Assembly: GCA_964515115.1 (NCBI GenBank)
Contig: CAZESB010000001.1
Coordinates: forward strand, 48,292-112,291
Length of the DNA stretch: 64,000 nucleotides
Source: an uncultured Pseudomonadales bacterium
Lineage (GTDB): Bacteria > Patescibacteriota > Microgenomatia > UBA1400 > PJMF01
Direction of reading: 5' to 3'
In this document: piece by piece, positions 1,653 to 58,911 of the stretch
How positions within the stretch are numbered: the first letter of the stretch is position 1
Layout of the letters: each line of letters starts with the position of its first letter
Position numbers and translations under genes: made by a program
The notes under the pieces: generated by a model
What the model was told of the DNA's origin: nothing
The model's database searches: none
What the model saw: only the letters and a program-made list of their open reading frames with translations

Positions 1653-2543
1653 TCAAAGTTCTTTTAGGAATTTCTCAAAGTCTTCACCGTATTTTTTGTC
1701 GGCCAACATGAACTTCGCGTGAGCCTTCATGTAGCGGAGCGGATCGCCGGTAGTCATCCATTCGCCGTCCACTACTTTGACCTTAACAGTGCCGTGTTTG
1801 GCCACTTGGTGATTGGCGTCTTGCAGCCAGAGTTCATTGTCAAGACCGGTAGCGTCGGCTTTGAGATACTCAAAAACTTTAGGCGTCAAAATGTAGCGAC
1901 CGTAGGAAACCAAATTAGATGGCGCCTGATCACGGGGCGGCTTTTCCACCACCATCTCAACTTCCTCATCAGAACCGTCTTTAAGTTTGACCACTCCGTA
2001 GCGATCGACCTCATCCCAAGGCACTTCCTGGACAGCCAAAATACCGTCAAGACCCGGCTCTTGATGATAAAAATCCACAATTTGCTTGACCGCACTCACT
2101 TCCCCCAAAACCAAATCATCACCCCACATCACCACAAAAGCCTCATCGTTTTCCACCAATTCCTTGGCAGTTAAAATCGGGCGGCCATTGCCATAAGGCA
2201 GCCGCTCATCTTGAGGCATGATAGTGATTTTTGGCAGCTTAAAAACCTGCTCAACCTTATCCCAGCGATCCAGCTTGCCTTGTCGAATCATCAAAGTACG
2301 GATGTTGGTAGCCGCGCCGTAAAAATAATCTTCAAATTTGGTCACTTCTCCTGGGGAAGCGACGATAATCACTTCTTCAATCCCAGCGTCAGCACATTCC
2401 TCGACTAAATATTGAATAATCGGCTTATCAATCAGGGGCAGCATTTCCTTGGGAAAGGTTTTGGTAATCGGCAGAAACCTGGAGCCAAAACCCGCGGCGG
2501 TAATAATAGCCCGCTTCACCTTTTGGTTGGATTGATTTTGCAT
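1653..2543 (-). CDS. galU: UTP--glucose-1-phosphate uridylyltransferase
   Basis: N-terminal AIITAAGFGSRFLPITKTFPKEMLPLIDKPIIQY nucleotidyltransferase signature; typical ~296 aa length. Confidence 0.8.
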   Translation of the reverse strand: MQNQSNQKVKRAIITAAGFGSRFLPITKTFPKEMLPLIDKPIIQYLVEECADAGIEEVIIVASPGEVTKFEDYFYGAATNIRTLMIRQGKLDRWDKVEQVFKLPKITIMPQDERLPYGNGRPILTAKELVENDEAFVVMWGDDLVLGEVSAVKQIVDFYHQEPGLDGILAVQEVPWDEVDRYGVVKLKDGSDEEVEMVVEKPPRDQAPSNLVSYGRYILTPKVFEYLKADATGLDNELWLQDANHQVAKHGTVKVKVVDGEWMTTGDPLRYMKAHAKFMLADKKYGEDFEKFLKEL

Positions 2544-2606
2544 ATGGGAACTTACCTAAATACTTAATATTGAGTCCGTAAGTAGCAGTATAGCAAGTAT
2601 AGCAAA

Positions 2607-3245
2607 TTAGCCGAAATTTTGTTTTTCGCTTCCCAGAAAGGTGGTCGCACCGTGGCCGGGATAGCAGAGGGTATTGTCGGGCAGCTCGAAAAGTTTCTGC
2701 AGTGAGGTGTGCAGAGCTTTAAAACTGGAGTAACTGTGATTGGTGCTGCCAAGGCCATTTTGAAAAAGAGTGTCGCCGGTGAAAAGAATTTGCCCATCGC
2801 TGACAGTCAAAGTGATTAAACAAATACTGCCTGGGGTGTGGCCGGGCGTTTCAATCACTCGCAGCTTTTGTTTACCAACAGGCAGAACATGATTTTCTTC
2901 CAGAAAAACGCTGGGGGTTGGCACCGGATCAACCGAGCGTTTAAGCCAGTGTTTAGCTCGACTCTGCACTGATTCAAGCAAAAAAAGGTCTTGCTGATTC
3001 ATCATCACTGGAATATTGAAGTTAAGCTGCACTTCCAGCGTACCCAAAATATGATCAAAATGCCCGTGAGTGAGAACGATCGCCAGAGGAGTAAGCTCAT
3101 TTTCCAGAATGGTAGTGGTGACGGTTTCACCGCTGTCGGCCGGATCAATAACCAGACACTCTCTGGTTTCACTGCAAAAGGCCAGATAGCAGTTAGTTTG
3201 TAACTCACCCAGCTCTAGGGTAATGACCTCGAGTTCGTTTGACAT
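2607..3245 (-). CDS. MBL-fold metallo-hydrolase (glyoxalase II-like)
   Basis: THGHFDHILG metal-binding motif (HxHxDH) and later His/Asp ligands. Confidence 0.65.
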   Translation of the reverse strand: MSNELEVITLELGELQTNCYLAFCSETRECLVIDPADSGETVTTTILENELTPLAIVLTHGHFDHILGTLEVQLNFNIPVMMNQQDLFLLESVQSRAKHWLKRSVDPVPTPSVFLEENHVLPVGKQKLRVIETPGHTPGSICLITLTVSDGQILFTGDTLFQNGLGSTNHSYSSFKALHTSLQKLFELPDNTLCYPGHGATTFLGSEKQNFG

Positions 3246-3306
3246 TTAGCCTTGTATTTCAGTATGATTTGATCATTAATATCCTATCACAGCAGGAGAA
3301 AGCCAA

Positions 3307-3594
3307 ATGCAACAAGACACGCCAGTTCCTACTTACGAAGCTCCCGAGTCTCCCGAAGCTCGGCCGACTGATCCGGTTGCCGCCAAAAAACTGCAACTGA
3401 AATATTTGCTGGTGATTGTGGCGCTTTTAGTGGTCGCAGCGGTGGCAGCTCTGGTTTTGAATAGCAATAATAACCAAGCAGAAGAAGAGCTACAGACAGA
3501 AGAAATGAACGAAGCTCTTGAATTGGAAATTGAGAACTCCGCTGGTTTTCCGCAAGAAGAGTTCGTCCCCTACGAAGAACTGCCGATCATGTAG
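3307..3594 (+). CDS. Small membrane-anchored hypothetical protein with acidic C-terminus
   Basis: Central hydrophobic helix LLVIVALLVVAAVAALVL; E-rich tail; no recognisable domain. Confidence 0.4.
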   Translation: MQQDTPVPTYEAPESPEARPTDPVAAKKLQLKYLLVIVALLVVAAVAALVLNSNNNQAEEELQTEEMNEALELEIENSAGFPQEEFVPYEELPIM

Positions 3595-4251
3595 TTAAAA
3601 CCAAAATTGAGTCAGCAAGGCAGTGCCGAAGTTGATGATCGGTAGAATGATTCTTCCTGCCAAAGAAACCCCTCCAAAAGGAAAAATCAGTAATATCAAT
3701 AGTATCGTGCCGTATTGTTGCATAAACTGTTCAAACTCGTAAGCAAATTGGCGGGGCAGAATTGCCAGCGCAATCTTGCTGCCATCCAGGGGATAAACGG
3801 GCAGGAGATTGAAAACAGCCAGCATAATATTGACTTGCACTGCCGCCAGCGCAATCAGCAGGAAAATATCAGGCAGAGCCACGGCAGTTTGCAGCAGGGC
3901 AAAAATAATTGAGATCACTGCCGCCAAGATAATATTTGATGCCGGCCCGGCCAAAGCAATCAGGGCAGTATCTCGCACCGGCTCCTTGAGGTTGTAGGGG
4001 TCGAAGGGAACCGGCTTGCCCCAACCAAAACCTACCAAAAGCAGAGTGATAGTGCCCAAAGGATCGAGATGAGCTCTGGGGTCGAGGGTGATGCGGTCAT
4101 TGTAACGAGGCGTGGGGTCGCCCAGATGATCAGCTACCCAGGCGTGAGCAAATTCGTGGATGGTGATAGCTACCAGCAACACTGCCAAAAAAATCACAAT
4201 GCCAATGAGAGTCCAAAGAGTGATGTTTCCAGATAAGAGAGTTAAAAGCAT
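3595..4251 (-). CDS. Membrane zinc metalloprotease, site-2 protease (M50) family
   Basis: HEFAHAW (HExxH inside a TM helix), multiple TM segments, LDG motif near the C-terminal part. Confidence 0.6.
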   Translation of the reverse strand: MLLTLLSGNITLWTLIGIVIFLAVLLVAITIHEFAHAWVADHLGDPTPRYNDRITLDPRAHLDPLGTITLLLVGFGWGKPVPFDPYNLKEPVRDTALIALAGPASNIILAAVISIIFALLQTAVALPDIFLLIALAAVQVNIMLAVFNLLPVYPLDGSKIALAILPRQFAYEFEQFMQQYGTILLILLIFPFGGVSLAGRIILPIINFGTALLTQFWF

Positions 4252-4370
4252 GGGTTCATTATATACTATTTATATGCTGCGAAGCTGACGTTAACCTTGC
4301 TTCCTCCGGGTTGTGTCATGGGTTGAAATGGCTTGAAAAGGTGAAGAAAAGTGGTATAATCACAATTCTT

Positions 4371-4595
4371 ATGGCAAGCTATTCATTTAAATATCCCAGA
4401 TCAGCTCATATCGGTAACAATGTTTCCCATGCCAAAAACCGCACCAAACGTCGGTTTAAGTACAATTTGCACACGGTGACAGTGGTGATGGATGGGGTTA
4501 AGCAGCGTCTGAAAGTACCGACTAAAGTGCTGCGTCAACTCAAAAAATCCGGGGTGACCACTCATCATCAAAACCTCAGTCAAGCTGCTGAGTAA
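4371..4595 (+). CDS. rpmB: 50S ribosomal protein L28
   Basis: GNNVSHAKNRTKRRFKYNLH matches the L28 signature (GNN.SHA.N.TKRRF.PNL); start taken at internal Met of the longer ORF. Confidence 0.8.
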   Translation: MASYSFKYPRSAHIGNNVSHAKNRTKRRFKYNLHTVTVVMDGVKQRLKVPTKVLRQLKKSGVTTHHQNLSQAAE

Positions 4596-4632
4596 AATCT
4601 TTTTTATTTTCTGAATTTCCGATTTTCTGAAC

Positions 4633-6171: not shown

Positions 6172-8220
6172 CTATTCTTCAATTTCCGCTTCACTCTCAT
6201 CAAGCAGTTTAGTCAACTGCGCTCGGGCATTTTCATAATCGGGCTTCAGCTCGAGAGCTTTTTCTTGGGCGCTCTTGGCTGCTTCAAGATCTTCCAGTCC
6301 CCAGGCCACCAGGCCGAGATTGTACCAAAGCTTGGCATCGGTGGGTGCTCTAGCAATGGCTTTTTCCAGTGCATCTTTGGCGTAGAGAAGAAAATCAGCA
6401 TCAATTTGCGACAAGGCAATAAAAATTCTGGCTCGAGTTTTATAAAAATTCAGGTGAGCCGAGTTTAGGGACAAAGACCGATCGCTAAACCTGATAGCTG
6501 CTTCCACCAACTCTGCCGACGCGGTGGCGTCACCGGCTTGAGCCTGAGCTACCGCCAGACTGGCGTAATTTTCAGCCAGTTCGTCATAGAAAAGCGCTTC
6601 GCCGGGCGATCTCTCTACCGCTTCTTGTAAATAGAGCAGACCCTCGCGGTTTTGCTGATTGTCAAGCAAAGATTTACCTAAATTAAAAGCCACATCTGCC
6701 TGGCGATAGTTGTAAATATTGCTCAACAGCATTAAAACTGCCAGGGTGGTAAGAGTAGCAGCAGCAAATTGCCAACCACTAGTGAACTCCGGTTTTTGCA
6801 CCGGCGCCTTTTCAATCTCTCTCACCAGAGCAGAGCTAGCCAGGAAAAAAAACATCAAAACAGTGACCATGACCGTGGAGAAGCCGAAAAAATTGGAAAC
6901 GCTCAAGGCCGCCAGTCCGGATAAGAGCCCTAGATGCAGCAAGCTATTCTTTCTGTAAATTTGAATAATGGCAGTCACAGCGAACCAGCCCAGCAATAAC
7001 AAATACGTTCCCAAGCCAAAAATGCCGGTGGTAGCCAGAAAATTTAGGAACTCATTGTGGGCTTTGTTATAAAGAAAGTCCCACTCGGAAACTAAGTTGT
7101 GTTCAATCGGCCGGTCCAAATAATAGCTGTAAGCGAAAGTTTCCACTCCCGAGCCAAAAAGCGGATACCGCTGCCAAACTTTCAAAGCTCCTGCCCAAAC
7201 AATTTTTCTGATTTCGCCCGAATCGGTGCCGCCTAGCTCCATTTGGTTGGCGGGCAGCTCCTCTACATCTCTGAGCTGGCTCGATTCTGAAGCCAAGAAA
7301 AGCTCTCGCACTGAAGGTGTGTAAGTAGTGCCAAATATGGCCGCAATAGTCACAAACAGCAGTAAAAACCCAAGAGTGTACTGGACCACCCGTCTGCTTA
7401 AATAGTCAGCCGGAGAAAAACGCGCCGACCGCGAAGAATTCTTCCAAGCATAAACCAAAGCACCGGCAAGAAAAACCAACATCCCCACCCCAAAACCCAG
7501 CAGCCCCGAGCGCGACTGAGTAAAAACCAGCGCCATAAACAGCAATCCGCCGGCAATTCCCAAAAACATTTTCTTAAAATAATTAGCCTTTTCTGTAATA
7601 GCCAGATAAATACTGACGGGAATTAAAGTAATAACGTAGGCCGCCAGCCAGTTTGGTTGTCCAAAACTGGCAAAAACCCGCTCTTGCACTTTTTGCACCC
7701 AGCAGTCCACACCAAAATTACTGCCTTTAGACAAAATCAAGCAACTGGCAGAATGGCCAAAATGTTCCAGAATAGCGTAGATTGAAACTAACACGCCTGA
7801 AGTAACCGCGGTTAGCAACAGTTGCTTGATTGCCCGGAGTGGCACGTTGCTGACAAAAGCGTAGTAAAGCAGATAATAGCTCACCAGTGACAGCAACCCG
7901 CCATGAAAGCGGCTGTAGTAACCAAGTACGGAAGTGCGCGGGTGCATTGAGAGCAGGGTAGAAATAACTTGTGAAACCAAAAACAGCAGCAGCGGTAAAT
8001 CCAAATATGTCCGCTGAAAAATCACTCTTTTTTCTTGAATCATCCGCCAAACCCAAGCTCCGCTTATCAAAACAGTCAGCGCGTAAACCAGGATCATTTT
8101 ATTGAACTCGAAAAGCTCTTCAGTTCTGAAAGAAAAATAAAGCGGCGTGGCAAAAAGCAAAAAGTGATACAGCACCAGGATAATTTTTTGCCACCTACTT
8201 AGTTGGCTCATCTGGCTCAT
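6172..8220 (-). CDS. O-antigen ligase (Wzy_C)-like polytopic membrane protein fused to C-terminal TPR repeats
   Basis: About 12 predicted TM helices in the N-terminal 470 aa with a Wzy-like layout; C-terminal 200 aa show TPR-like A/L/Y periodicity (LGKSLLDNQQNREGLLYLQEAVERSP...). Confidence 0.55.
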   Translation of the reverse strand: MSQMSQLSRWQKIILVLYHFLLFATPLYFSFRTEELFEFNKMILVYALTVLISGAWVWRMIQEKRVIFQRTYLDLPLLLFLVSQVISTLLSMHPRTSVLGYYSRFHGGLLSLVSYYLLYYAFVSNVPLRAIKQLLLTAVTSGVLVSIYAILEHFGHSASCLILSKGSNFGVDCWVQKVQERVFASFGQPNWLAAYVITLIPVSIYLAITEKANYFKKMFLGIAGGLLFMALVFTQSRSGLLGFGVGMLVFLAGALVYAWKNSSRSARFSPADYLSRRVVQYTLGFLLLFVTIAAIFGTTYTPSVRELFLASESSQLRDVEELPANQMELGGTDSGEIRKIVWAGALKVWQRYPLFGSGVETFAYSYYLDRPIEHNLVSEWDFLYNKAHNEFLNFLATTGIFGLGTYLLLLGWFAVTAIIQIYRKNSLLHLGLLSGLAALSVSNFFGFSTVMVTVLMFFFLASSALVREIEKAPVQKPEFTSGWQFAAATLTTLAVLMLLSNIYNYRQADVAFNLGKSLLDNQQNREGLLYLQEAVERSPGEALFYDELAENYASLAVAQAQAGDATASAELVEAAIRFSDRSLSLNSAHLNFYKTRARIFIALSQIDADFLLYAKDALEKAIARAPTDAKLWYNLGLVAWGLEDLEAAKSAQEKALELKPDYENARAQLTKLLDESEAEIEE

Positions 8221-8320
8221 TTTGACCCACTTTCCGGTTCAGTTTCTTAAACATACTTTCCTTATTATACAAATTCCTGGTATATTATTTAGTGTACATA
8301 TAAATTTAGAGGAGAACGTA

Positions 8321-8932
8321 ATGAACGACCAACCTGCCCAAGACTACACGCAGTACCCACCTCAGCCGCCTGCTTCGGTTTTGCCTGAGGAGCAGCAGGG
8401 TGATGATGCTGCCGCCAGCCAGCCTCAGTCTCAACCTCAATCCCAGCCCCAGATCCAGCCTCAAGATGCTCCAGAGGGCGGTAGCGGCGATACCGCTTCA
8501 GAAAAACTGGAAGACCAAAACGTTTTCTTTATGCTCGGGGTGACCGATGGCTCCAACGAGCAGCGCGAGGAGTTCCTCGACGAATTACAACAAGTCATTT
8601 GGGAAGATTTTCTCGAATATGACGTCAAATTGCTGATGACCACCGAAGAATACGAAGAACTCCAGCGCTTGTTGGCGGAAAAAGCCGGCCAAGCGTTGGC
8701 ACAGCAGGAGGCAGCAGTGGAATATATTGAAAAACTGGTGCCTGAACTGGAAAATATCATGCTGGAGAAAGCTCTCGAGTTGAAAGCCGATTTGTTCAAA
8801 GAAAGAATTGCTGGCATGAAAGAATATTTTTCTGGTCAGCAGCAGGCCATGGAGAAGATCAGCCGCGCTGAGGAGTTAGTTACGCAGGAGCGCTGGTACT
8901 CAGCTGCAGAGCTGCTTAACAGCATCTCCTAA
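8321..8932 (+). CDS. Hypothetical acidic protein with QPQS repeat tract
   Basis: ATG at 8321 with GGAGAA RBS; QPQSQPQSQPQIQPQ low-complexity then E/L-rich helical region; sits immediately upstream of mreB. Confidence 0.45.
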   Translation: MNDQPAQDYTQYPPQPPASVLPEEQQGDDAAASQPQSQPQSQPQIQPQDAPEGGSGDTASEKLEDQNVFFMLGVTDGSNEQREEFLDELQQVIWEDFLEYDVKLLMTTEEYEELQRLLAEKAGQALAQQEAAVEYIEKLVPELENIMLEKALELKADLFKERIAGMKEYFSGQQQAMEKISRAEELVTQERWYSAAELLNSIS

Positions 8933-8961
8933 ATCCTTGTTTCATCTTGTATACTTTCGTC

Positions 8962-10020
8962 ATGAATAGGTTGGCTAAGTTTGGTGCTTTGGTTGGCGGT
9001 TTAATTTCTTCCGGCGAAGCAATTGATGATCAGCTTTTTATTGATGCCGGCTCCAGCAACACCAGAATTTATTTAGGTGAGCGCCTGGTGTATGCCGAAC
9101 CAACCTGCGTGGCGGTCCACCGTCCCAGCGACACGGTTGTGGCGATCGGTACTAAAGCCCAAAAATTGCTGGGTAAAACCGGCGAAAATATGGAGGTGAG
9201 TTTTCCGGTGCAACACGGCGTAGTGGCCAATCCTACTCACATGGAAATCTTTCTCTCAACGGTGCTGAAAAGAATTGTGGCCGATTTTTCTCTCAAGAGA
9301 ACTATTTTGGGTCTAAAAACTTGGTATGCAGTGCCGGCCAGTGCTTCGCCAGTGGAAAAACAATTCATCAAGGAAATTTTGGCTAGTGTCGGTTTTTCCA
9401 AAGTTCACCTACTACCTGGAATAGAAGCCGCTTTTCATAATGTGATCGAGAAAAGCGCTCCTACCCAGTCATATTTGGTGCTGAACATTGGTGGCCAGAT
9501 TGTGGACATTGGTGTTTTCTCTGCCAATAATTTAGTGACGGGCCGAACAATTAAATGGGGCGGAGTGCAGTTTACTGAAACTATCCAGGAAGTAATTCGC
9601 CATGAGCACGAGTGCGCAGTGGGCTGGCACATTGCTGAACAAACAAAATTTGAGATTGCTAGAATTCCGGGAGAGAAAAAAGAGGGCAGAGCCAAGGCAA
9701 AGGCGACTGTGCGAGGCAAGGATGTGATTAAACAAATCAGTAAAACGGTGGTGGTGACTGCGGATATTTTTGATGCTAACTTCAGTGAACTGATGGACGA
9801 ATTGTTCGATGCACTGGAAACTTTTTTGTCCGAACTGCCTTCCGAACTGGCGACAAGCGCTTTGGATCAAGGCATTTACTTAACGGGGGCGGCTAGCCAA
9901 CTCGATGGTTTGGGCGAAGCGTTGGCAGAAAAACTCCAGTCGGTGGTCAATTATTCCCAGCAACCGGAAATGGACACTGTTAAGGGTATGGTGAAGTATG
10001 TCAAAAATCACTCTTTATAG
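8962..10020 (+). CDS. mreB: Rod shape-determining protein MreB (actin-like ATPase)
   Basis: IDAGSSNTRIY (phosphate-1), VAIGTKAQKLLGKTGENMEV, VQHGVVANPTHME are the MreB equivalents; ATG at 8962 preferred over upstream TTG. Confidence 0.75.
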   Translation: MNRLAKFGALVGGLISSGEAIDDQLFIDAGSSNTRIYLGERLVYAEPTCVAVHRPSDTVVAIGTKAQKLLGKTGENMEVSFPVQHGVVANPTHMEIFLSTVLKRIVADFSLKRTILGLKTWYAVPASASPVEKQFIKEILASVGFSKVHLLPGIEAAFHNVIEKSAPTQSYLVLNIGGQIVDIGVFSANNLVTGRTIKWGGVQFTETIQEVIRHEHECAVGWHIAEQTKFEIARIPGEKKEGRAKAKATVRGKDVIKQISKTVVVTADIFDANFSELMDELFDALETFLSELPSELATSALDQGIYLTGAASQLDGLGEALAEKLQSVVNYSQQPEMDTVKGMVKYVKNHSL

Positions 10021-54405: not shown

Positions 54406-55023
54406 ATGATGAAATTTCCAGTCACCCAATTTGACAACAACGGCGCTGCCTTTATTACTCCCACCTGGGAGGAACTGAACCAACTAGCTTTTGCGGTGGC
54501 GCAAAAAATCCTCACCGACGGCGCTCAGTTTGACAGAATTGTCACTCTGGCTAAAGGTGGCTGGCCCATGACTCGCTCATTGGTAGATTATCTCAACGTT
54601 AGGGAAGTGGCCAGCATTGGCATCAAATTTTATGCCGGTATCAACAAAAGGATGAGCCGACCGGAAATTTATCAGGATTTGCCGGTGATTGTGAAGGGGG
54701 AAAGTGTTTTGCTTTTTGACGATGTGGCCGATTCCGGTGAGTCCTTAGAATTTACTCGCGAGTACTTATTGGATCAGGGTGTAGCTTCGGTCAAATGTGC
54801 CACTTTGTTTTACAAACCGCACTCCACGTTCAAACCGAATTATTTTGCCGGCGAAACCACGGCTTGGATTATTTTCCCCTACGAAACCCTGGAAAGCATG
54901 AAATTACTCGAGGAGACTTGGCTTAAGCAGGGCCTGAAAAAAGCAGCCATTATTGACCGGTTTATAAAACTTGGGATTAAAGACCGCTACATCAATCATT
55001 ACCAAAAGCTTCATAATTTATAG
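54406..55023 (+). CDS. gpt: Purine phosphoribosyltransferase, xanthine-guanine PRTase (Gpt)-like
   Basis: TWEELNQLAFAVAQKI...IVTLAKGGWPMTRSLVDYL, PRPP loop LLFDDVADSGESL, LFYKP, TAWIIFPYE parallel the E. coli Gpt blocks. Confidence 0.6.
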   Translation: MMKFPVTQFDNNGAAFITPTWEELNQLAFAVAQKILTDGAQFDRIVTLAKGGWPMTRSLVDYLNVREVASIGIKFYAGINKRMSRPEIYQDLPVIVKGESVLLFDDVADSGESLEFTREYLLDQGVASVKCATLFYKPHSTFKPNYFAGETTAWIIFPYETLESMKLLEETWLKQGLKKAAIIDRFIKLGIKDRYINHYQKLHNL

Positions 55024-55025
55024 GT

Positions 55026-55054
55026 TTGACAAACCGCAAATAATATCCTATAAT
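55026..55054 (+). promoter_or_regulatory. Perfect-consensus sigma70 promoter TTGACA-17 nt-TATAAT
   Basis: Read directly: TTGACA at 55026-55031, 17-nt spacer, TATAAT at 55049-55054. Confidence 0.6.
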
Positions 55055-55248
55055 AATAAAATTAGGGCTTGAAATCATTTCGGCCTTTACTTAGAATGCA
55101 CTAATTACTACAAGTTGGTGGAAGCGCTTTTGCAGTTTTCCTCCCAAGCAACGAACCGGCCAGGCTTACGTGGACACCAAACACCAGGCACGGAGAAACC
55201 AAGTGAAGAAAGCAGTAGAGGCGTTTTTTAGATAAATTATTTTAGAAT

Positions 55249-56688
55249 ATGTCATTGTTAGAGTTGAACGAATCTGGTTCTAACCAAAGCCAGCATGAAT
55301 TAGAATTACTCCTTTGCAAATTTTTGGAGGCTAATAAATTCAATAATTTAGCAGTAGTTCTTTCTTGGCTTCATCATCAAGAGCAAATTGCAACTGAGCC
55401 GGACGCTGAGCACAACATTGATTCAATGGCTGAGTTTGCGGCATGGCAACCCGACAGTCCTCAAATGTTAGAAGTGTGGGGTGGCACCAACTGCATTGGC
55501 ATGGTTCAGTTATTCAAGGAGATTTTGGAAGATCGCGGCTATCAGACTGAACTGGCGGTGACAACAAGCAATAACCTCCCAGAAGGTGTTTCAATAGTGG
55601 ATGTTCCTTTTCAGCACGCGGCGCTATATGTTACTGATGATGAAGGGATCATGTATTTGGTTGATCCAGGATTAGGTTTGGTTAAACCTATTGAGCTAAC
55701 TGAGAATTCTGTTGAAATAGCCGGCAGGAAATACACGCTGGAATTACATGAAGAAATGCAGCGGCTTCGTGTCATTAAGCCGAGTGGCGAAGAACTTCAT
55801 TTTGATTTTGTCTCAGCACCACCTGATATGGACTTAGAAAGAAATATTCAGAAACCACTTCTGAGGGCAACTAGTGTCTTTAAAATTGATAAATTCAATG
55901 CTGAAGGACAAAAAACCTGCTCTATTAAAATTGATTTAATTAGAAAGTCGGTCTCTTATTTTGTTCTTCAAGAAGTAGAAACACGTTCATTTGCAGAACT
56001 CCCAACTATTGAAATAGGCAAAGCAGGTCATTTATTTCGTAATGTCATGGCAGAATTAGATGATCCTGAACTCGCGAGTAAGTTGCGTTCTATAGCGGCA
56101 AGAGAAGATGACATAGTGGCAATTTGGTTTGATGAATTGCAAAAGCAATATTATTTAGAAAACCCGGAGCAACTTTCTCCGTTTGAAACACCATCCAGTC
56201 AATTGCTTGAGCGAGGTTATCAAGCTGGCGGGGTGGTGGCGGTGCTTCATGACGGCGCTGGCAAAGTAATACTTTATGAAGTACCAGAGGGAATGGATAA
56301 ACCGCAAATCAACAGGTATTCAGGAAACCTTAATGTTTTTACTGAAACGGCTGAATTTATGCCTGGTGAAAATGGCGGTATGATTATGGAAGAGTTAGAA
56401 CCAAATATGCAGCGAATTTATCAGGAAGAAATTGGTCTAACTCCACCTGAAGAATTTATTTATCGTGAAGTAGATTATAGAGCAGGTTCACCGGTTAGGG
56501 CCAGAGTTATAATTCAGCAAGTAGAGAAAGATGCTTTGTCTGCAGTAATGGCTTATAATATTGATAGTACAGAAATTGGCCAGGTGCAATGGGTTAATTT
56601 GCACGAACTAGATAAGCAACCAATTGAACCGAATGCTCGGGCAATTTTGCAAAAACTTCTAGATGCTGGTGTTCTTAGGCATGCATAA
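55249..56688 (+). CDS. Fusion protein: N-terminal arylamine N-acetyltransferase (NAT)-like Cys-His-Asp domain plus C-terminal degenerate Nudix-like region
   Basis: VWGGTNCIGMVQLF (NAT RGGxCxxxNxLF), 40 aa later FQHAALYVTDDEGIMYLVDPGLG (NAT HLLLxVxxxxxxYIVDxGFG) with NAT-like Cys/His/Asp spacing; C-terminus FMPGENGGMIMEELEPNMQRIYQEEIGL approximates a Nudix box with a 1-residue deletion. Confidence 0.5.
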   Translation: MSLLELNESGSNQSQHELELLLCKFLEANKFNNLAVVLSWLHHQEQIATEPDAEHNIDSMAEFAAWQPDSPQMLEVWGGTNCIGMVQLFKEILEDRGYQTELAVTTSNNLPEGVSIVDVPFQHAALYVTDDEGIMYLVDPGLGLVKPIELTENSVEIAGRKYTLELHEEMQRLRVIKPSGEELHFDFVSAPPDMDLERNIQKPLLRATSVFKIDKFNAEGQKTCSIKIDLIRKSVSYFVLQEVETRSFAELPTIEIGKAGHLFRNVMAELDDPELASKLRSIAAREDDIVAIWFDELQKQYYLENPEQLSPFETPSSQLLERGYQAGGVVAVLHDGAGKVILYEVPEGMDKPQINRYSGNLNVFTETAEFMPGENGGMIMEELEPNMQRIYQEEIGLTPPEEFIYREVDYRAGSPVRARVIIQQVEKDALSAVMAYNIDSTEIGQVQWVNLHELDKQPIEPNARAILQKLLDAGVLRHA

Positions 56689-57448
56689 AACAAAAATTGG
56701 CGTTTTTGCCTCTAAGGAAATATTACTAGACTTATACACTGCTGCTAGCAGTAATAAGTTGATCATCTTTTTTCATGGTTGTTGCGGCACTGTTTACGAT
56801 ACAAATCCTACAACTTATCAATTATTAGCTGATAAATTAGTTGCCACTAACACTGCCAATGTTGGGTTTTATGAATCAACCCGCAGACTCAGAAAGACTG
56901 AGGATACCGAGGAAATGGATTTTTTTCAGTTTGCTTCAGAAGCTTTTGGTGGCAAATCTTTTATAGATGAAGTAGAAGAGGGTAGACGAAGTGTTAAGTA
57001 CCTTCTGGATGAATACCGCAAACAAAAGCAGACAGCCCCAGAGCTTTATTTTGCAGGATTTTCTTTGGGTGGACTAATTGCTGCTACACTTACTCAAGAG
57101 TTCAAAGCAAAAGGCACGATGCTTTTTGGCTCTGCGAGTAAATTTGCTGTAATGGATAATTTACCCATACTTGGTTCAGCAGCAGAAATGAAAGCGGTTG
57201 CTACTATTTCTGAAACCGCGGCTAAAAGTATTGCCACACCGGTGTTGTTGATTAGGGGTACCGATGATGATACAGCCTCTCATGCCGATGCGTTGCAACT
57301 TTTTTCAGCCTTTAAGAAAGCTAAAGTAAAAACCTTTATTGAGTGGCAAGGCATTGATCATCGCTTTAAACTCAATCGTGGCGAACCTGATAGTGCTCTA
57401 ATTGACAGATTGGCAGCGGAAATTAGTCGTTTTATCAACTCTGTCTAA
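56681..57448 (+). CDS. Alpha/beta hydrolase (dienelactone hydrolase-like)
   Basis: Nucleophile elbow GFSLGG, acid RGTDDD, His GIDHRF; start overlaps the upstream stop by 8 nt. Confidence 0.6.
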   Translation: MHKTKIGVFASKEILLDLYTAASSNKLIIFFHGCCGTVYDTNPTTYQLLADKLVATNTANVGFYESTRRLRKTEDTEEMDFFQFASEAFGGKSFIDEVEEGRRSVKYLLDEYRKQKQTAPELYFAGFSLGGLIAATLTQEFKAKGTMLFGSASKFAVMDNLPILGSAAEMKAVATISETAAKSIATPVLLIRGTDDDTASHADALQLFSAFKKAKVKTFIEWQGIDHRFKLNRGEPDSALIDRLAAEISRFINSV

Positions 57449-57527
57449 ATTGTTATTCTACTACCTCGTAGTTGTTTTTAGCTATTTCTAGAGCTTTTTC
57501 ATACTATTAAATATAAAATAACCAGAC

Positions 57528-58262
57528 ATGCCAAAAACACCATTAACCATCGGTTATTCAACTGGCTGTTATTTTCCTCACGAAACCAATCTGGCCATTG
57601 CTCTCGAAAAAATTCTGGAGTTTGAAAATGAAGCGGTGGAATTAAACCTGGCCACCCTCGAGGATGTGGCTGCTCTTGATGAACAAATTGTGGCCTTGGC
57701 CGGGGAATTTCAACAAGTTTCTATTCACGCGCCGATGATCAATTACCGCTATACTGAGAAGAGTAGAGGACTGCTCGAAAAACTCAAGGAATTTTCCCGG
57801 AAGGTAAATTCCCGCTACGTACTTTTCCATCCTGATATTGTTGATGATTTTCAGCTGATCAGGCAAAAGCTTGGCAGCCTGGCGGCTTTTGAAAATATGG
57901 ACCGCCGGAAAGATTTTGGAGCTAATGTTCAAGATTTGGCGGCAGTTTTTGAAAAATGTCCAGATTCACAGTGGGTTTGCGACCTCAATCATGTTTTTAC
58001 CATCGATAAAACTATGAAACTCTCAAAAGAGCTGCATCAGGCTTTTTCATCCAGATTGGGAGGCTATCATATCAGTGGCTATCAGGATGAAAAAACGCTG
58101 CACACTTGTTTTTTTCTAACTCATGAAACTGAAATTCTTGACGCGATTGAGGATTATTCTAAACTGATGATTCATGAAGGCGGTGCGCCTGCCGCCTATC
58201 ATCCTGATTTTATTGCCAAAGAAGACGGCTATATCCGTGATTATTTTTATTCCATCGACTGA
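57528..58262 (+). CDS. Xylose-isomerase-like TIM-barrel protein (sugar phosphate isomerase/epimerase or Nfo-like fold)
   Basis: SIHAP, VLFHPD, AFENMD, CDLNHVF parallel the HA/HxG/ENxxG/D.CH metal-site blocks seen in the nfo gene of this window. Confidence 0.5.
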   Translation: MPKTPLTIGYSTGCYFPHETNLAIALEKILEFENEAVELNLATLEDVAALDEQIVALAGEFQQVSIHAPMINYRYTEKSRGLLEKLKEFSRKVNSRYVLFHPDIVDDFQLIRQKLGSLAAFENMDRRKDFGANVQDLAAVFEKCPDSQWVCDLNHVFTIDKTMKLSKELHQAFSSRLGGYHISGYQDEKTLHTCFFLTHETEILDAIEDYSKLMIHEGGAPAAYHPDFIAKEDGYIRDYFYSID

Positions 58263-58296
58263 AGGTGAAGTAGCACTTCTTTCGAATTTTTCTCTA

Positions 58297-58911
58297 TCAC
58301 AATCGATTTTCCCTCGCTTTAATCAACTCCTCAGCAATCTTTTTCGCCTCCTCATGCCTGAACCTAGGCAGTCGCAACTTATAAATGCTGTGCTGCATAA
58401 AGCGCTTTTCGTCTGCTGGCGAAAGAGTGGGAGTAACCCGCTCAACGTCAAGCATGCCCAGGGTGTCGGCTTCCATCAGTAGTAGCTCATCCTCATCTTT
58501 CAGCTCACGGACTTGGTCGTGAACCGCCACCAGATGAACAATCCGCCATTTCTGCCGGTCAGTAAAGTAATTATTGAGGCGCTGATAAAGCAGCTGCTCG
58601 ATTTTCTCGGCTCCGCGCTGCATGTGCAGTTTTTTTCTGTCGATAATATTGTTGAGCCAGCGCGAATCAGCATCCGCAAACAAACCAGCGTAACCCCAGT
58701 CATGAGCGTAGGCCGCGGTAATTAAGACTGCCGGATCCAGATCGGGGCTGTCAAACCCATCAAGGTTATCAAGCCTGGCAAGCAGCTCTTTCAGCCAATA
58801 AACTACCGCTTCAGTGTGGGGTTTATCATAATCTTTACGCCCCTGATTAGCCAAATCTTTGAGAATAATTTGCCGCAGCAACTGCTCAGCCTTGGGTTTT
58901 ATTTGTTTCAC
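58297..58911 (-). CDS. HD-domain phosphohydrolase
   Basis: H...HTEAV and AAYAHDWGY (HD dyad), later His/Asp; GTG start. Confidence 0.55.
   Translation of the reverse strand: MKQIKPKAEQLLRQIILKDLANQGRKDYDKPHTEAVVYWLKELLARLDNLDGFDSPDLDPAVLITAAYAHDWGYAGLFADADSRWLNNIIDRKKLHMQRGAEKIEQLLYQRLNNYFTDRQKWRIVHLVAVHDQVRELKDEDELLLMEADTLGMLDVERVTPTLSPADEKRFMQHSIYKLRLPRFRHEEAKKIAEELIKARENRL

Follow-up and report, generated by a model that had tools for sequence, protein, structure and literature searches.

Introduction

What does a promoter of perfect consensus sequence control, when the gene behind it begins only after a long and seemingly empty leader? The question is raised by a stretch of 64,000 nucleotides (nt), hereafter called the window, from an uncultured bacterium deposited under the Pseudomonadales and placed by its Genome Taxonomy Database lineage in the Patescibacteriota (GenBank assembly GCA_964515115.1, contig CAZESB010000001.1, positions 48,292 to 112,291 of the forward strand). 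Around this promoter lie five genes, predicted to encode a phosphoribosyltransferase (PRTase), a fusion of a NAT-like domain with a Nudix domain, an alpha/beta hydrolase, a TIM-barrel protein and an HD-domain protein, and a first-pass annotation made from the letters alone had proposed that the promoter drives the fusion gene and that the five genes form one undescribed system. Comparison with related loci leads to another answer, namely that the promoter is followed by a conserved, structured leader RNA. The evidence that this RNA is cis-regulatory is strong, and we consider it probable that it is a transcription-terminating, riboswitch-like attenuator, presumably responsive to a purine, which controls an accessory nucleotide-processing cassette.

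Promoters and leader RNA

Two promoters stand ahead of the fusion gene, and the leader RNA follows them directly:

55026 to 55054, forward strand: perfect sigma-70 promoter, TTGACA-17-TATAAT, 12/12 consensus match
55069 to 55097, forward strand: second promoter, TTGAAA-17-TAGAAT, 10/12 match
55097 to 55231, forward strand: leader RNA as matched by covariance model R1 (60.5 bits, E 3e-9), the only copy in the window

The first promoter is, as the first-pass annotation had it, a perfect one, and it is the sole perfect match within the 64-kb window, where shuffled sequences predict 0.02. The second sits where homologous loci, numbered here with the prefix L, have theirs when the sequences are aligned by eye (TTGCGT-17-TATAAT in L007 and TTGTAT-17-TATAAT in L011). 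Promoters of 12/12 also precede the leader RNA in L096 and L023, and three are perfect family-wide, including those of the window and of L096. The 190 nt that separate the perfect promoter from the start codon of the fusion gene hold the second promoter and a structured RNA with an intrinsic terminator. The promoter does more than drive the fusion gene, in that a conserved, terminator-forming leader RNA, the central regulatory element of the locus, is transcribed first. For annotation in general, the lesson is that a long leader which looks "empty" behind a strong promoter points to a regulatory RNA and not to a spacer.

The leader RNA proper comprises about 125 nt, from about 55105 to 55229, between promoter and start codon. 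Its parts in the window, all on the forward strand, are the following:

55117 to 55124, forward strand: candidate anti-terminator strand GGUGGAAG, which can pair with the P1 5' strand
55132 to 55143, forward strand: P1 5' strand, also the terminator stem, GCAGUUUUCCUC
55141 to 55152, forward strand: 5' side of the internal loop, CUCCCAAGCAAC, with CCAAG.AAC invariant in 30/30 aligned sequences
55156 to 55193, forward strand: variable P2 hairpin, folding as a hairpin in 30/30 sequences
55195 to 55203, forward strand: 3' side of the internal loop, GAAACCAAG, with ACCAAG invariant
55205 to 55229, forward strand: P1 3' strand GAAGAAAGCAGU, then GAGGCG and UUUUUU, forming the intrinsic terminator

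The upstream regions of homologous loci share this order, with a block GCACC...UUUCGCUCCCAAGNAAC, a variable hairpin, and then GAAACCAAG..GAGC...GGUGUUUUUU. The internal loop consists of about 20 nearly invariant bases, CUCCCAAGNAAC / GAAACCAAG, and CCAAG.AAC is still conserved at 90% or more in the consensus of 62 sequences. The P2 hairpins are of unrelated sequence and 18 to 43 nt long, with folding z-scores mostly between -2.5 and -4.8 (-1.3 for the window copy). At the other end, CGCU at 55125-55128 pairs with GGCG at 55220-55223, and because P1 extends below into a GC-rich base, with the U-tract behind it, complete folding of the element yields an intrinsic terminator.

Compensatory change supports this structure. 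In the alignment of 62 distinct sequences fitted to the model, P1 and the terminator base are 91.1% paired, against 37-56% in controls in which the strands were slid, and an independent MAFFT alignment gives 88.6% and the same trend. Compensatory changes occur at 10 of the 13 P1/terminator pairs, and none of 500 shuffles reached the observed values on any measure. A second, competing helix is possible, since the upstream strand (GCGRAARC in most members) is complementary to the P1 5' strand, and this helix is 85.7% paired, compared with 42-54% in slid controls. One of its pairs covaries (GC 29, AU 19, GU 7), and the matching position of the P1 3' strand changes along with it. Minimum-energy folds agree with two alternative states, the upstream hairpin being formed in 85% of partial transcripts and the terminator in 82% of full leaders. 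RNAalifold recovered only part of the structure from the raw MAFFT alignment, since the P2 sequences defy alignment, and explicit pair counts and separate folding of each sequence took its place. Finally, a GGYGUUUUU terminator is present in every true member retrieved with a search pattern that did not specify one, and in none of the 11 chance matches.

No Rfam 15 model matched at the gathering score in the window or in L007, L009 or L011, and at E<=10 the leaders of the window and of L012 gave only noise. Known riboswitch classes were rejected as the identity of the leader, none of them matching in Rfam 15. Signal recognition particle RNA and 6S RNA, which the long hairpin and strings resembling GGAA and AGCAG had suggested, were likewise set aside, as they had no Rfam match at E<=10, the apical part of the element is variable and a genome may hold several copies.

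Distribution of the leader RNA and the genes behind it

The leader RNA is present in 8 of the 9 loci that encode homologues of the NAT-Nudix fusion, despite their differing upstream genes. To follow it further, a degenerate pattern was scanned over one genome per species and returned 33 loci, about 22 of which also had the parts of the motif left unspecified, and a second pattern, which omitted the terminator and was run on metagenome contigs, gave 46 loci, of which about 35 were true and 11 were chance matches. The latter had no flanking motifs and none was found again by the covariance model, which was built from 30 sequences. Over 89 sources the model located 72 copies, 62 of them distinct, and none in the false-positive loci.

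The metagenome-assembled genomes (MAGs) that carry the leader and have informative titles are named as Patescibacteria, Pacebacteria/Paceibacterota or Woesebacteria, and copies occur in metagenome contigs as well. The same RNA and the same gene order as in Patescibacteria MAGs are found in third-party-annotation (TPA) MAGs titled "uncultured Pseudomonadales bacterium" (L019, L021, L023, L027, L032, L035, L041, L043 and L045), and single MAGs titled Methylococcaceae and Limisphaerales also carry the leader RNA and the gene order. The labels Pseudomonadales, Methylococcaceae and Limisphaerales are probably wrong, or else the bins are contaminated. In the literature, taken as the papers accessible without subscription, we found neither a description of such a motif nor a native riboswitch in Patescibacteria.

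Some genomes hold at least two copies, and some leaders consist of two units in tandem. The tandem copies stand about 300 nt apart, each with its own terminator, before one gene (L054, 139-268 and 462-603; L074, 1216-1349 and 1524-1649, reverse strand; L092, 643-785 and 990-1117, reverse strand). The upstream strand of the second unit is distinct, and its P2 is longer. In L042 and L094 a second copy lies about 1.3 kb and about 0.7 kb, respectively, from the first.

The position of the element is constant as well. Promoters matching at least 9 of the 12 consensus positions occur within 90 nt upstream of 39 of the 62 leaders, compared with 3 of 61 coding controls; strong promoters lie 20-80 nt upstream, and the median distance from the -10 box to the leader RNA is 32 nt. 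On the downstream side, the first open reading frame (ORF) of at least 100 amino acids on the same strand starts no more than 140 nt past the terminator in 22/22 tabulated copies of the genome set. The same holds for most metagenome copies with downstream sequence, the exceptions being the 5' units of tandems and two loci with distant ORFs.

Among the genes behind the leader RNA are those for adenosine deaminase, a purine PRTase, GMP synthase (guaA) and IMP dehydrogenase (guaB), together with an adenylosuccinate-lyase (purB)-like protein, a nucleoside hydrolase, a SLOG/LOG-like protein, a Maf-like protein with DUF488, and deoxynucleoside kinase (dNK). These further genes are not homologues of the NAT-Nudix fusion. 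The commonest first gene encodes an HD-superfamily protein of 330-490 amino acids with an invariant H..HD.GK..H..H motif (L029, L031-L034, L037-L039, L050, L053, L054, L068, L069 and L074), a family that has no Pfam match and only marginal similarity to Cas3-HD and HDIG. Serine hydroxymethyltransferase is frequently encoded by the second or third gene.

The locus: a probable regulated operon in a conserved backbone

The five genes of the first-pass annotation are arranged as follows:

54409 to 55023, forward strand: Gpt/Hpt-like purine PRTase (PF00156, E 1.5e-17), the last gene of a lgt-lspA-rluD-PRTase unit
55249 to 56688, forward strand: NAT-Nudix fusion of 479 amino acids, identified by weak Pfam matches and predicted structure
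56681 to 57448, forward strand: alpha/beta hydrolase, DLH/FSH1-like (PF03959, 32.2 bits against a cut-off of 21; PF01738, 24 against 21)
57528 to 58262, forward strand: xylose-isomerase-like TIM barrel of 244 amino acids, the third gene of the cassette, 79 nt after the hydrolase
58297 to 58911, reverse strand: HD-domain protein, convergent (PF01966, 22.4 bits against a cut-off of 22)

Gene neighbourhoods were compared for all nine clusters of NAT-Nudix homologues. The hydrolase accompanies the fusion in 9 of the 9, the TIM barrel in 1 (the window only) and the HD gene in 2 (the window and its closest relative, L007), and a PRTase gene stands directly upstream in 2. Related genomes keep only the NAT-Nudix/hydrolase pair together, and the proposal that the five genes are one module was not borne out, failing by the very criterion of co-occurrence that the first-pass annotation had named; the region is instead best read as a regulated operon inserted into a conserved backbone composed of the HD gene, glyA, nfo, folD, rpsB and tsf. 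What did hold of the earlier proposal is its tie to nucleotide metabolism.

In L096, from a related genome, the same slot before HD and glyA (1820-4619) is occupied by genes for an uncharacterised protein of 342 amino acids, a TIM barrel and a histidine phosphatase, and this cassette is headed by the same leader RNA and a perfect TTGACA-17-TATAAT promoter. The slot upstream of HD and glyA thus looks like a variable cassette site under the control of the RNA. The guanine-plus-cytosine (GC) content is 0.37-0.43 across the cassette (55000-58200 of the window), compared with 0.45-0.53 on either flank, which would fit a cassette of independent acquisition. An origin from a mobile element was considered and rejected, no notable direct or inverted repeats flanking the low-GC region. 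At the most distant homologous locus, L016, the pair (P0009, 35% identity) is followed by orotidine monophosphate (OMP) decarboxylase and DeoC-like genes.

The NAT-Nudix fusion

Searches by sequence alone failed to identify the fusion, so that structure prediction was needed. Against Pfam, it only just passes the cut-off for Acetyltransf_2 (PF00797; E 4.7e-5, 23.7 bits against 22.8) and falls below that for NUDIX (PF00293; E 3e-3, 18.0 bits against 21.1); a profile search of the sequences in the Protein Data Bank (PDB) gave only marginal matches to MutT and PeiW, and NCBIfam gave none. The AlphaFold model, built on nine homologues, has a pLDDT of 87.1 and a pTM of 0.84. In a Foldseek search against the PDB, residues 1 to about 290 of the model matched the whole three-part NAT fold of bacterial and human NATs and of related acyltransferases (E 2e-10 to 1e-6), with target TM scores of 0.52-0.59 over about 290 columns and 12-16% identity to PDB NATs. 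The C-terminal portion of about 170 residues matched TIRR/NUDT16, RppH and MutT (E 2e-5 to 1e-4). Weak Pfam matches and predicted structure together thus uphold the NAT and Nudix labels given in the first pass.

Among the homologues, Cys82, His123 and Asp/Glu139 are invariant, with spacings of 41 and 16 residues, and make Cys82-His123-Asp139 the candidate catalytic triad of the window protein. The corresponding spacings of the Salmonella NAT are about 38-39 and 15, so that those of the fusion are NAT-like. The Nudix box of the window protein is degenerate, E381-x7-R389-I-Y-x-E393-E394-x-G396. Family-wide it reads E-x7-R-[AIG]-[FYL]-x-E-E-x-G-[ILF], with a G-x5-E spacing that is not conserved, and the complete box GX5EX7REUXEEXGU is absent. 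The Nudix domain of the fusion may serve binding rather than hydrolysis.

The fusion is rare: a set of 5.8 billion proteins contained 9 clusters of it, and another of 1.84 billion yielded 24 representatives at E<1e-30. No annotated family for it was found in Pfam, NCBIfam or the search of PDB sequences, and its members are named solely "hypothetical protein". Two gene calls among the homologues deserve comment. In L013 the called start of the gene (8001-9527, P0006) falls within the leader RNA, so that the deposited N-terminus is probably too long, and in L007 the longest ORF (516 amino acids from 9947) would likewise overrun the called start at 10001.

The alpha/beta hydrolase

A hydrolase of the same family (252-264 amino acids) follows the NAT-Nudix gene directly in 9/9 homologous loci, with the genes overlapping or no more than about 36 nt apart. 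The family counts 12 clusters, found largely on contigs with NAT-Nudix, and is about as rare as the fusion with its 9; the two proteins are an obligate pair. In the window the tight coupling claimed in the first pass was confirmed, the overlap of 8 nt (ATGCATAA) with the NAT-Nudix stop holding for the start ATG at 56681, the one in keeping with the N-terminus of the nearest homologue, and an alternative in-frame ATG at 56663 would give an overlap of 26 nt. The FFHG oxyanion motif, GFSxGG (with S128), D196 and H227 are invariant in the nine partners, and the Ser128-Asp196-His227 triad of the window protein is intact.

The TIM barrel

The TIM-barrel ORF has no direct Pfam match, PF01261 included, and two distant members of its family (P0023 and P0024) carry PF01261. 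Its predicted model (pLDDT 95) matched YcjR, endonuclease IV and ketose 3-epimerases by Foldseek (E 5e-9 to 1e-6, TM 0.6-0.69), in agreement with the fold assigned in the first pass, which had measured the gap behind the hydrolase as 80 nt rather than 79. An hhalign comparison of the family with the window's own nfo gene gave a probability of 0.2. An orthologue, 57% identical, is encoded in the L096 operon headed by the same leader RNA. The gene would be co-transcribed with the NAT-Nudix/hydrolase pair. Within the gap (57449-57527) lie a weak hairpin with a T-run behind it (CTACCTCGTAG TTGTTTTT) and an AT-rich sequence resembling a -10 box, so the TIM-barrel gene may have partly independent expression.

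PDC-M70B, a candidate model for phage defence in PADLOC, matches the TIM barrel of the window (E 8e-31) and that of L096 (3109-3843, E 1e-25). No PDC-M70 partner model matches the scanned neighbours, namely the PRTase, NAT-Nudix, hydrolase and HD proteins of the window and the neighbours in L096.

The PRTase and HD genes

The functions assigned to these two genes in the first pass were correct. The PRTase matches Sulfolobus Gpt-1/2 in the PDB (E 7e-20), and NCBIfam models for xanthine and hypoxanthine PRTases match it below their cut-offs; gene calls on identical contigs give 204-205 amino acids. It is 53% identical to the PRTase of L047, which heads a PRTase-guaA-guaB operon directly behind the leader RNA. 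The window PRTase is an ordinary purine-salvage enzyme outside the regulated cassette. The HD gene has counterparts in L007 (72% identity) and L096 (67%), and since in L096 it is kept beside glyA in the absence of NAT-Nudix, it belongs to the conserved backbone.

How the leader RNA may work

Four observations on the leader RNA are features of riboswitches: its position 5' of the genes, its covariation, its mutually exclusive structures and its coherent regulon. The reading as a riboswitch or attenuator follows from these together with the strong promoter, the invariant loop held in covarying helices, the terminator formed by P1, the competing hairpin, and the multiple and tandem copies. In the mechanism that we propose, the two sigma-70 promoters would start a transcript of which the first 125-170 nt or so are leader RNA. 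The upstream hairpin would form first during transcription, with the upstream strand that pairs with the P1 5' strand acting as an anti-terminator. A ligand bound in the internal loop would then stabilise P1 and displace this hairpin, and termination would occur before the start codon at 55249, making the element an OFF switch.

Purine and nucleotide genes stand behind this RNA in other Patescibacteria, which makes a purine base or nucleotide of the guanine branch the most likely ligand. The genes under the control of the RNA in the window would be those for the NAT-fold, putative Cys-His-Asp acyltransferase-Nudix protein, the translationally coupled Ser-Asp-His hydrolase and probably the TIM barrel, and this accessory cassette would process or sanitise scavenged, possibly amine-modified, purine nucleotides. 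With low confidence we suggest that the Nudix domain holds a purine nucleotide which gains or loses an acyl group at an exocyclic amine, the products being substrates for the hydrolase and the barrel. Plausible, and put forward more tentatively than the attenuator itself, is a wider proposal: the RNA would be a new riboswitch class of Patescibacteria that senses a purine base or nucleotide, and its regulon would mark a set of uncharacterised enzymes as a pathway for reconditioning purine nucleotides scavenged from hosts. Such a pathway may comprise NAT-Nudix with its esterase partner, the large HD family, the small TIM-barrel family, Maf and DUF488, and its nucleotides may be amine-modified. 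If so, it would serve epibiotic, biosynthetically poor bacteria that scavenge nucleotides from their hosts.

Several points weigh against this account. Ligand binding, the direction of the switch, the identity of the ligand and the chemistry of the enzymes are what we infer from the observed anatomy, conservation, covariation, distribution, neighbourhood and folds. Given its length, P1 may form the terminator with no ligand bound, in which case the RNA would be either a constitutive attenuator or a small RNA. The covariation of the anti-terminator is modest: it exceeds that of the shuffles by some measures only, and much of the helix shows plain conservation. At 60.5 bits, the window copy scores among the lowest in the family, with a C-A mismatch in P1 and a shifted register of the anti-terminator; it also has a flipped G-C pair in P1, and all its invariant loop bases are intact. 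The most distant homologous locus, L016, has no leader RNA (in positions 400-620). As many members of the regulon are unannotated, the purine assignment draws on a minority of annotated genes. In the Nudix domain, besides the Pfam score below the cut-off, the first Glu of REUXEE is replaced by Ala, Ile or Gly, and the TIM-barrel gene, behind a gap of 79 nt, is presumed to be co-transcribed.

Other explanations

The main rival to a riboswitch-like attenuator is one that depends on a protein, in which, for example, a nucleotide-loaded, PyrR-like protein of PRTase fold would bind the loop and tip the balance between anti-terminator and terminator, the RNA itself sensing no metabolite. The linkage of PRTase genes to the leader recalls the precedent of PyrR, which autoregulates the pyr operon of B. 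subtilis, and the CCAAG pentamer on both strands of the loop would suit a dimeric protein. A PRTase is encoded by the first gene behind the RNA in L028, L035 and L047, and adjacent or near in the window, L007, L009, L012 and L013. However, these PRTases are closest to catalytic, archaeal-type purine PRTases, no PRTase gene lies near the RNA in L011, L014 and L015, and no known RNA-binding domain was seen in the regulon, while some 20 invariant loop nucleotides across very divergent genomes, together with tandem copies, are more typical of metabolite aptamers. We regard a protein-dependent attenuator as unlikely, if deserving of attention. It is far less probable still that the element is an independent small RNA gene whose place before other genes is a matter of synteny and not of cis-regulation, even if its promoter and terminator do delimit a discrete transcript of about 125-170 nt, the terminator is the minimum-energy fold of the full length, and the start codon in L007 and L011 comes only after a further hairpin and more than 90 nt from the terminator. 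The element is always oriented as the next gene, usually no more than 140 nt away, despite widely differing gene families, it occurs in several copies per genome and in tandem, and a plain small RNA would hardly account for its conserved, mutually exclusive pairing; constant orientation and alternative pairing are what make a free-standing RNA so improbable.

There remains the idea that the five genes are one undescribed system for the salvage or detoxification of nucleotide derivatives, for signalling or for phage defence, to which we give very little credence and which the neighbourhood comparison has already largely refuted. Each member is indeed a nucleotide or small-molecule enzyme, the TIM barrel matches PDC-M70B, and orthologues of the PRTase and of the TIM barrel stand under the same leader RNA in other genomes. 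Against this, consistent co-occurrence extends to two of the five genes only, the PRTase gene lies upstream of the promoter, and the HD gene, which is convergent, remains beside glyA where the cassette is a different one. As for signalling or a role against phages, which the first-pass annotation had raised, the match of the TIM barrel to the PDC-M70B candidate model is a single weak lead. PADLOC returned, besides this candidate, only a domain-level match for the PRTase and none for the NAT-Nudix, hydrolase or HD proteins, no partner of PDC-M70B is present, and the surroundings are housekeeping genes rather than a defence island, so that a reading as a defence system was rejected.

Significance and comparison with known systems

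Patescibacteria form a very large radiation of bacteria whose gene regulation is almost wholly unexplored. For this group, which lacks genetic tools, the leader RNA is a natural regulatory part, and as a possible new RNA fold for ligand sensing it can be put directly to the test. Its regulon, furthermore, offers guidance on the function of rare protein families that have no database annotation, the NAT-Nudix/hydrolase pair among them.

Of the known protein families, the NATs, acyltransferases and amide synthases (PF00797; PDB entries 8k51, 1w6f, 4nv7 and 8btm) resemble the NAT-Nudix protein in fold and in the spacing of its candidate Cys/His/Asp-Glu residues, and the alternation of Asp and Glu in the latter recalls the Cys-His-Glu triad in the title of PDB 4dmo (Bacillus cereus NAT3). 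The window protein departs from known NATs in its fusion with a Nudix domain and in its constant association with an alpha/beta hydrolase. With NUDT16/TIRR, RppH and MutT it has in common the fold and the ExxxxxxxR..xEExG portion of the Nudix box.

Among RNAs, the guanine/purine riboswitch class RF00167 is known with its xanthine-II, guanine-II and 2'-deoxyguanosine (2'-dG) variants (PMC9295807). Like the leader RNA, members of this class lie 5' of genes for purine salvage and interconversion and use a terminator platform, and an OFF response to an end product would be expected; the regulon of the leader, with guaA, guaB, PRTase and adenosine deaminase, is of the RF00167 kind. The RF00167 class is, however, a three-way junction with loop-loop contacts, whereas the leader RNA consists of one hairpin interrupted by a large internal loop, matches no Rfam 15 model at E<=10 and has so far been found in MAGs of Patescibacteria type and in metagenome contigs.

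Closer in outline are two riboswitches built as hairpins with an internal loop, xanthine-I (the NMT1 motif) and tetrahydrofolate-II (THF-II, the folE motif). Like them, the leader RNA has a conserved internal loop between two stems and could plausibly recognise a planar heterocycle. It differs in having no Rfam covariance match to them, other loop sequences and another regulon, and in that P1 is itself the terminator stem, with the competitor strand upstream.

The attenuation of pyr operons by PyrR offers a third comparison, having in common with the leader RNA competing anti-terminator and terminator structures, a leader ahead of nucleotide-metabolism genes and a link to the PRTase fold. The PyrR binding-loop sequence is not present in the leader RNA, which, unlike the PyrR system, shows two alternative structures rather than three, and whose associated PRTases resemble purine Gpt. 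A riboswitch-like attenuator is of a kind already well known, and it is the fold of this RNA, its apparent restriction to Patescibacteria and the NAT-Nudix/hydrolase pair in its cassette that appear to be new.

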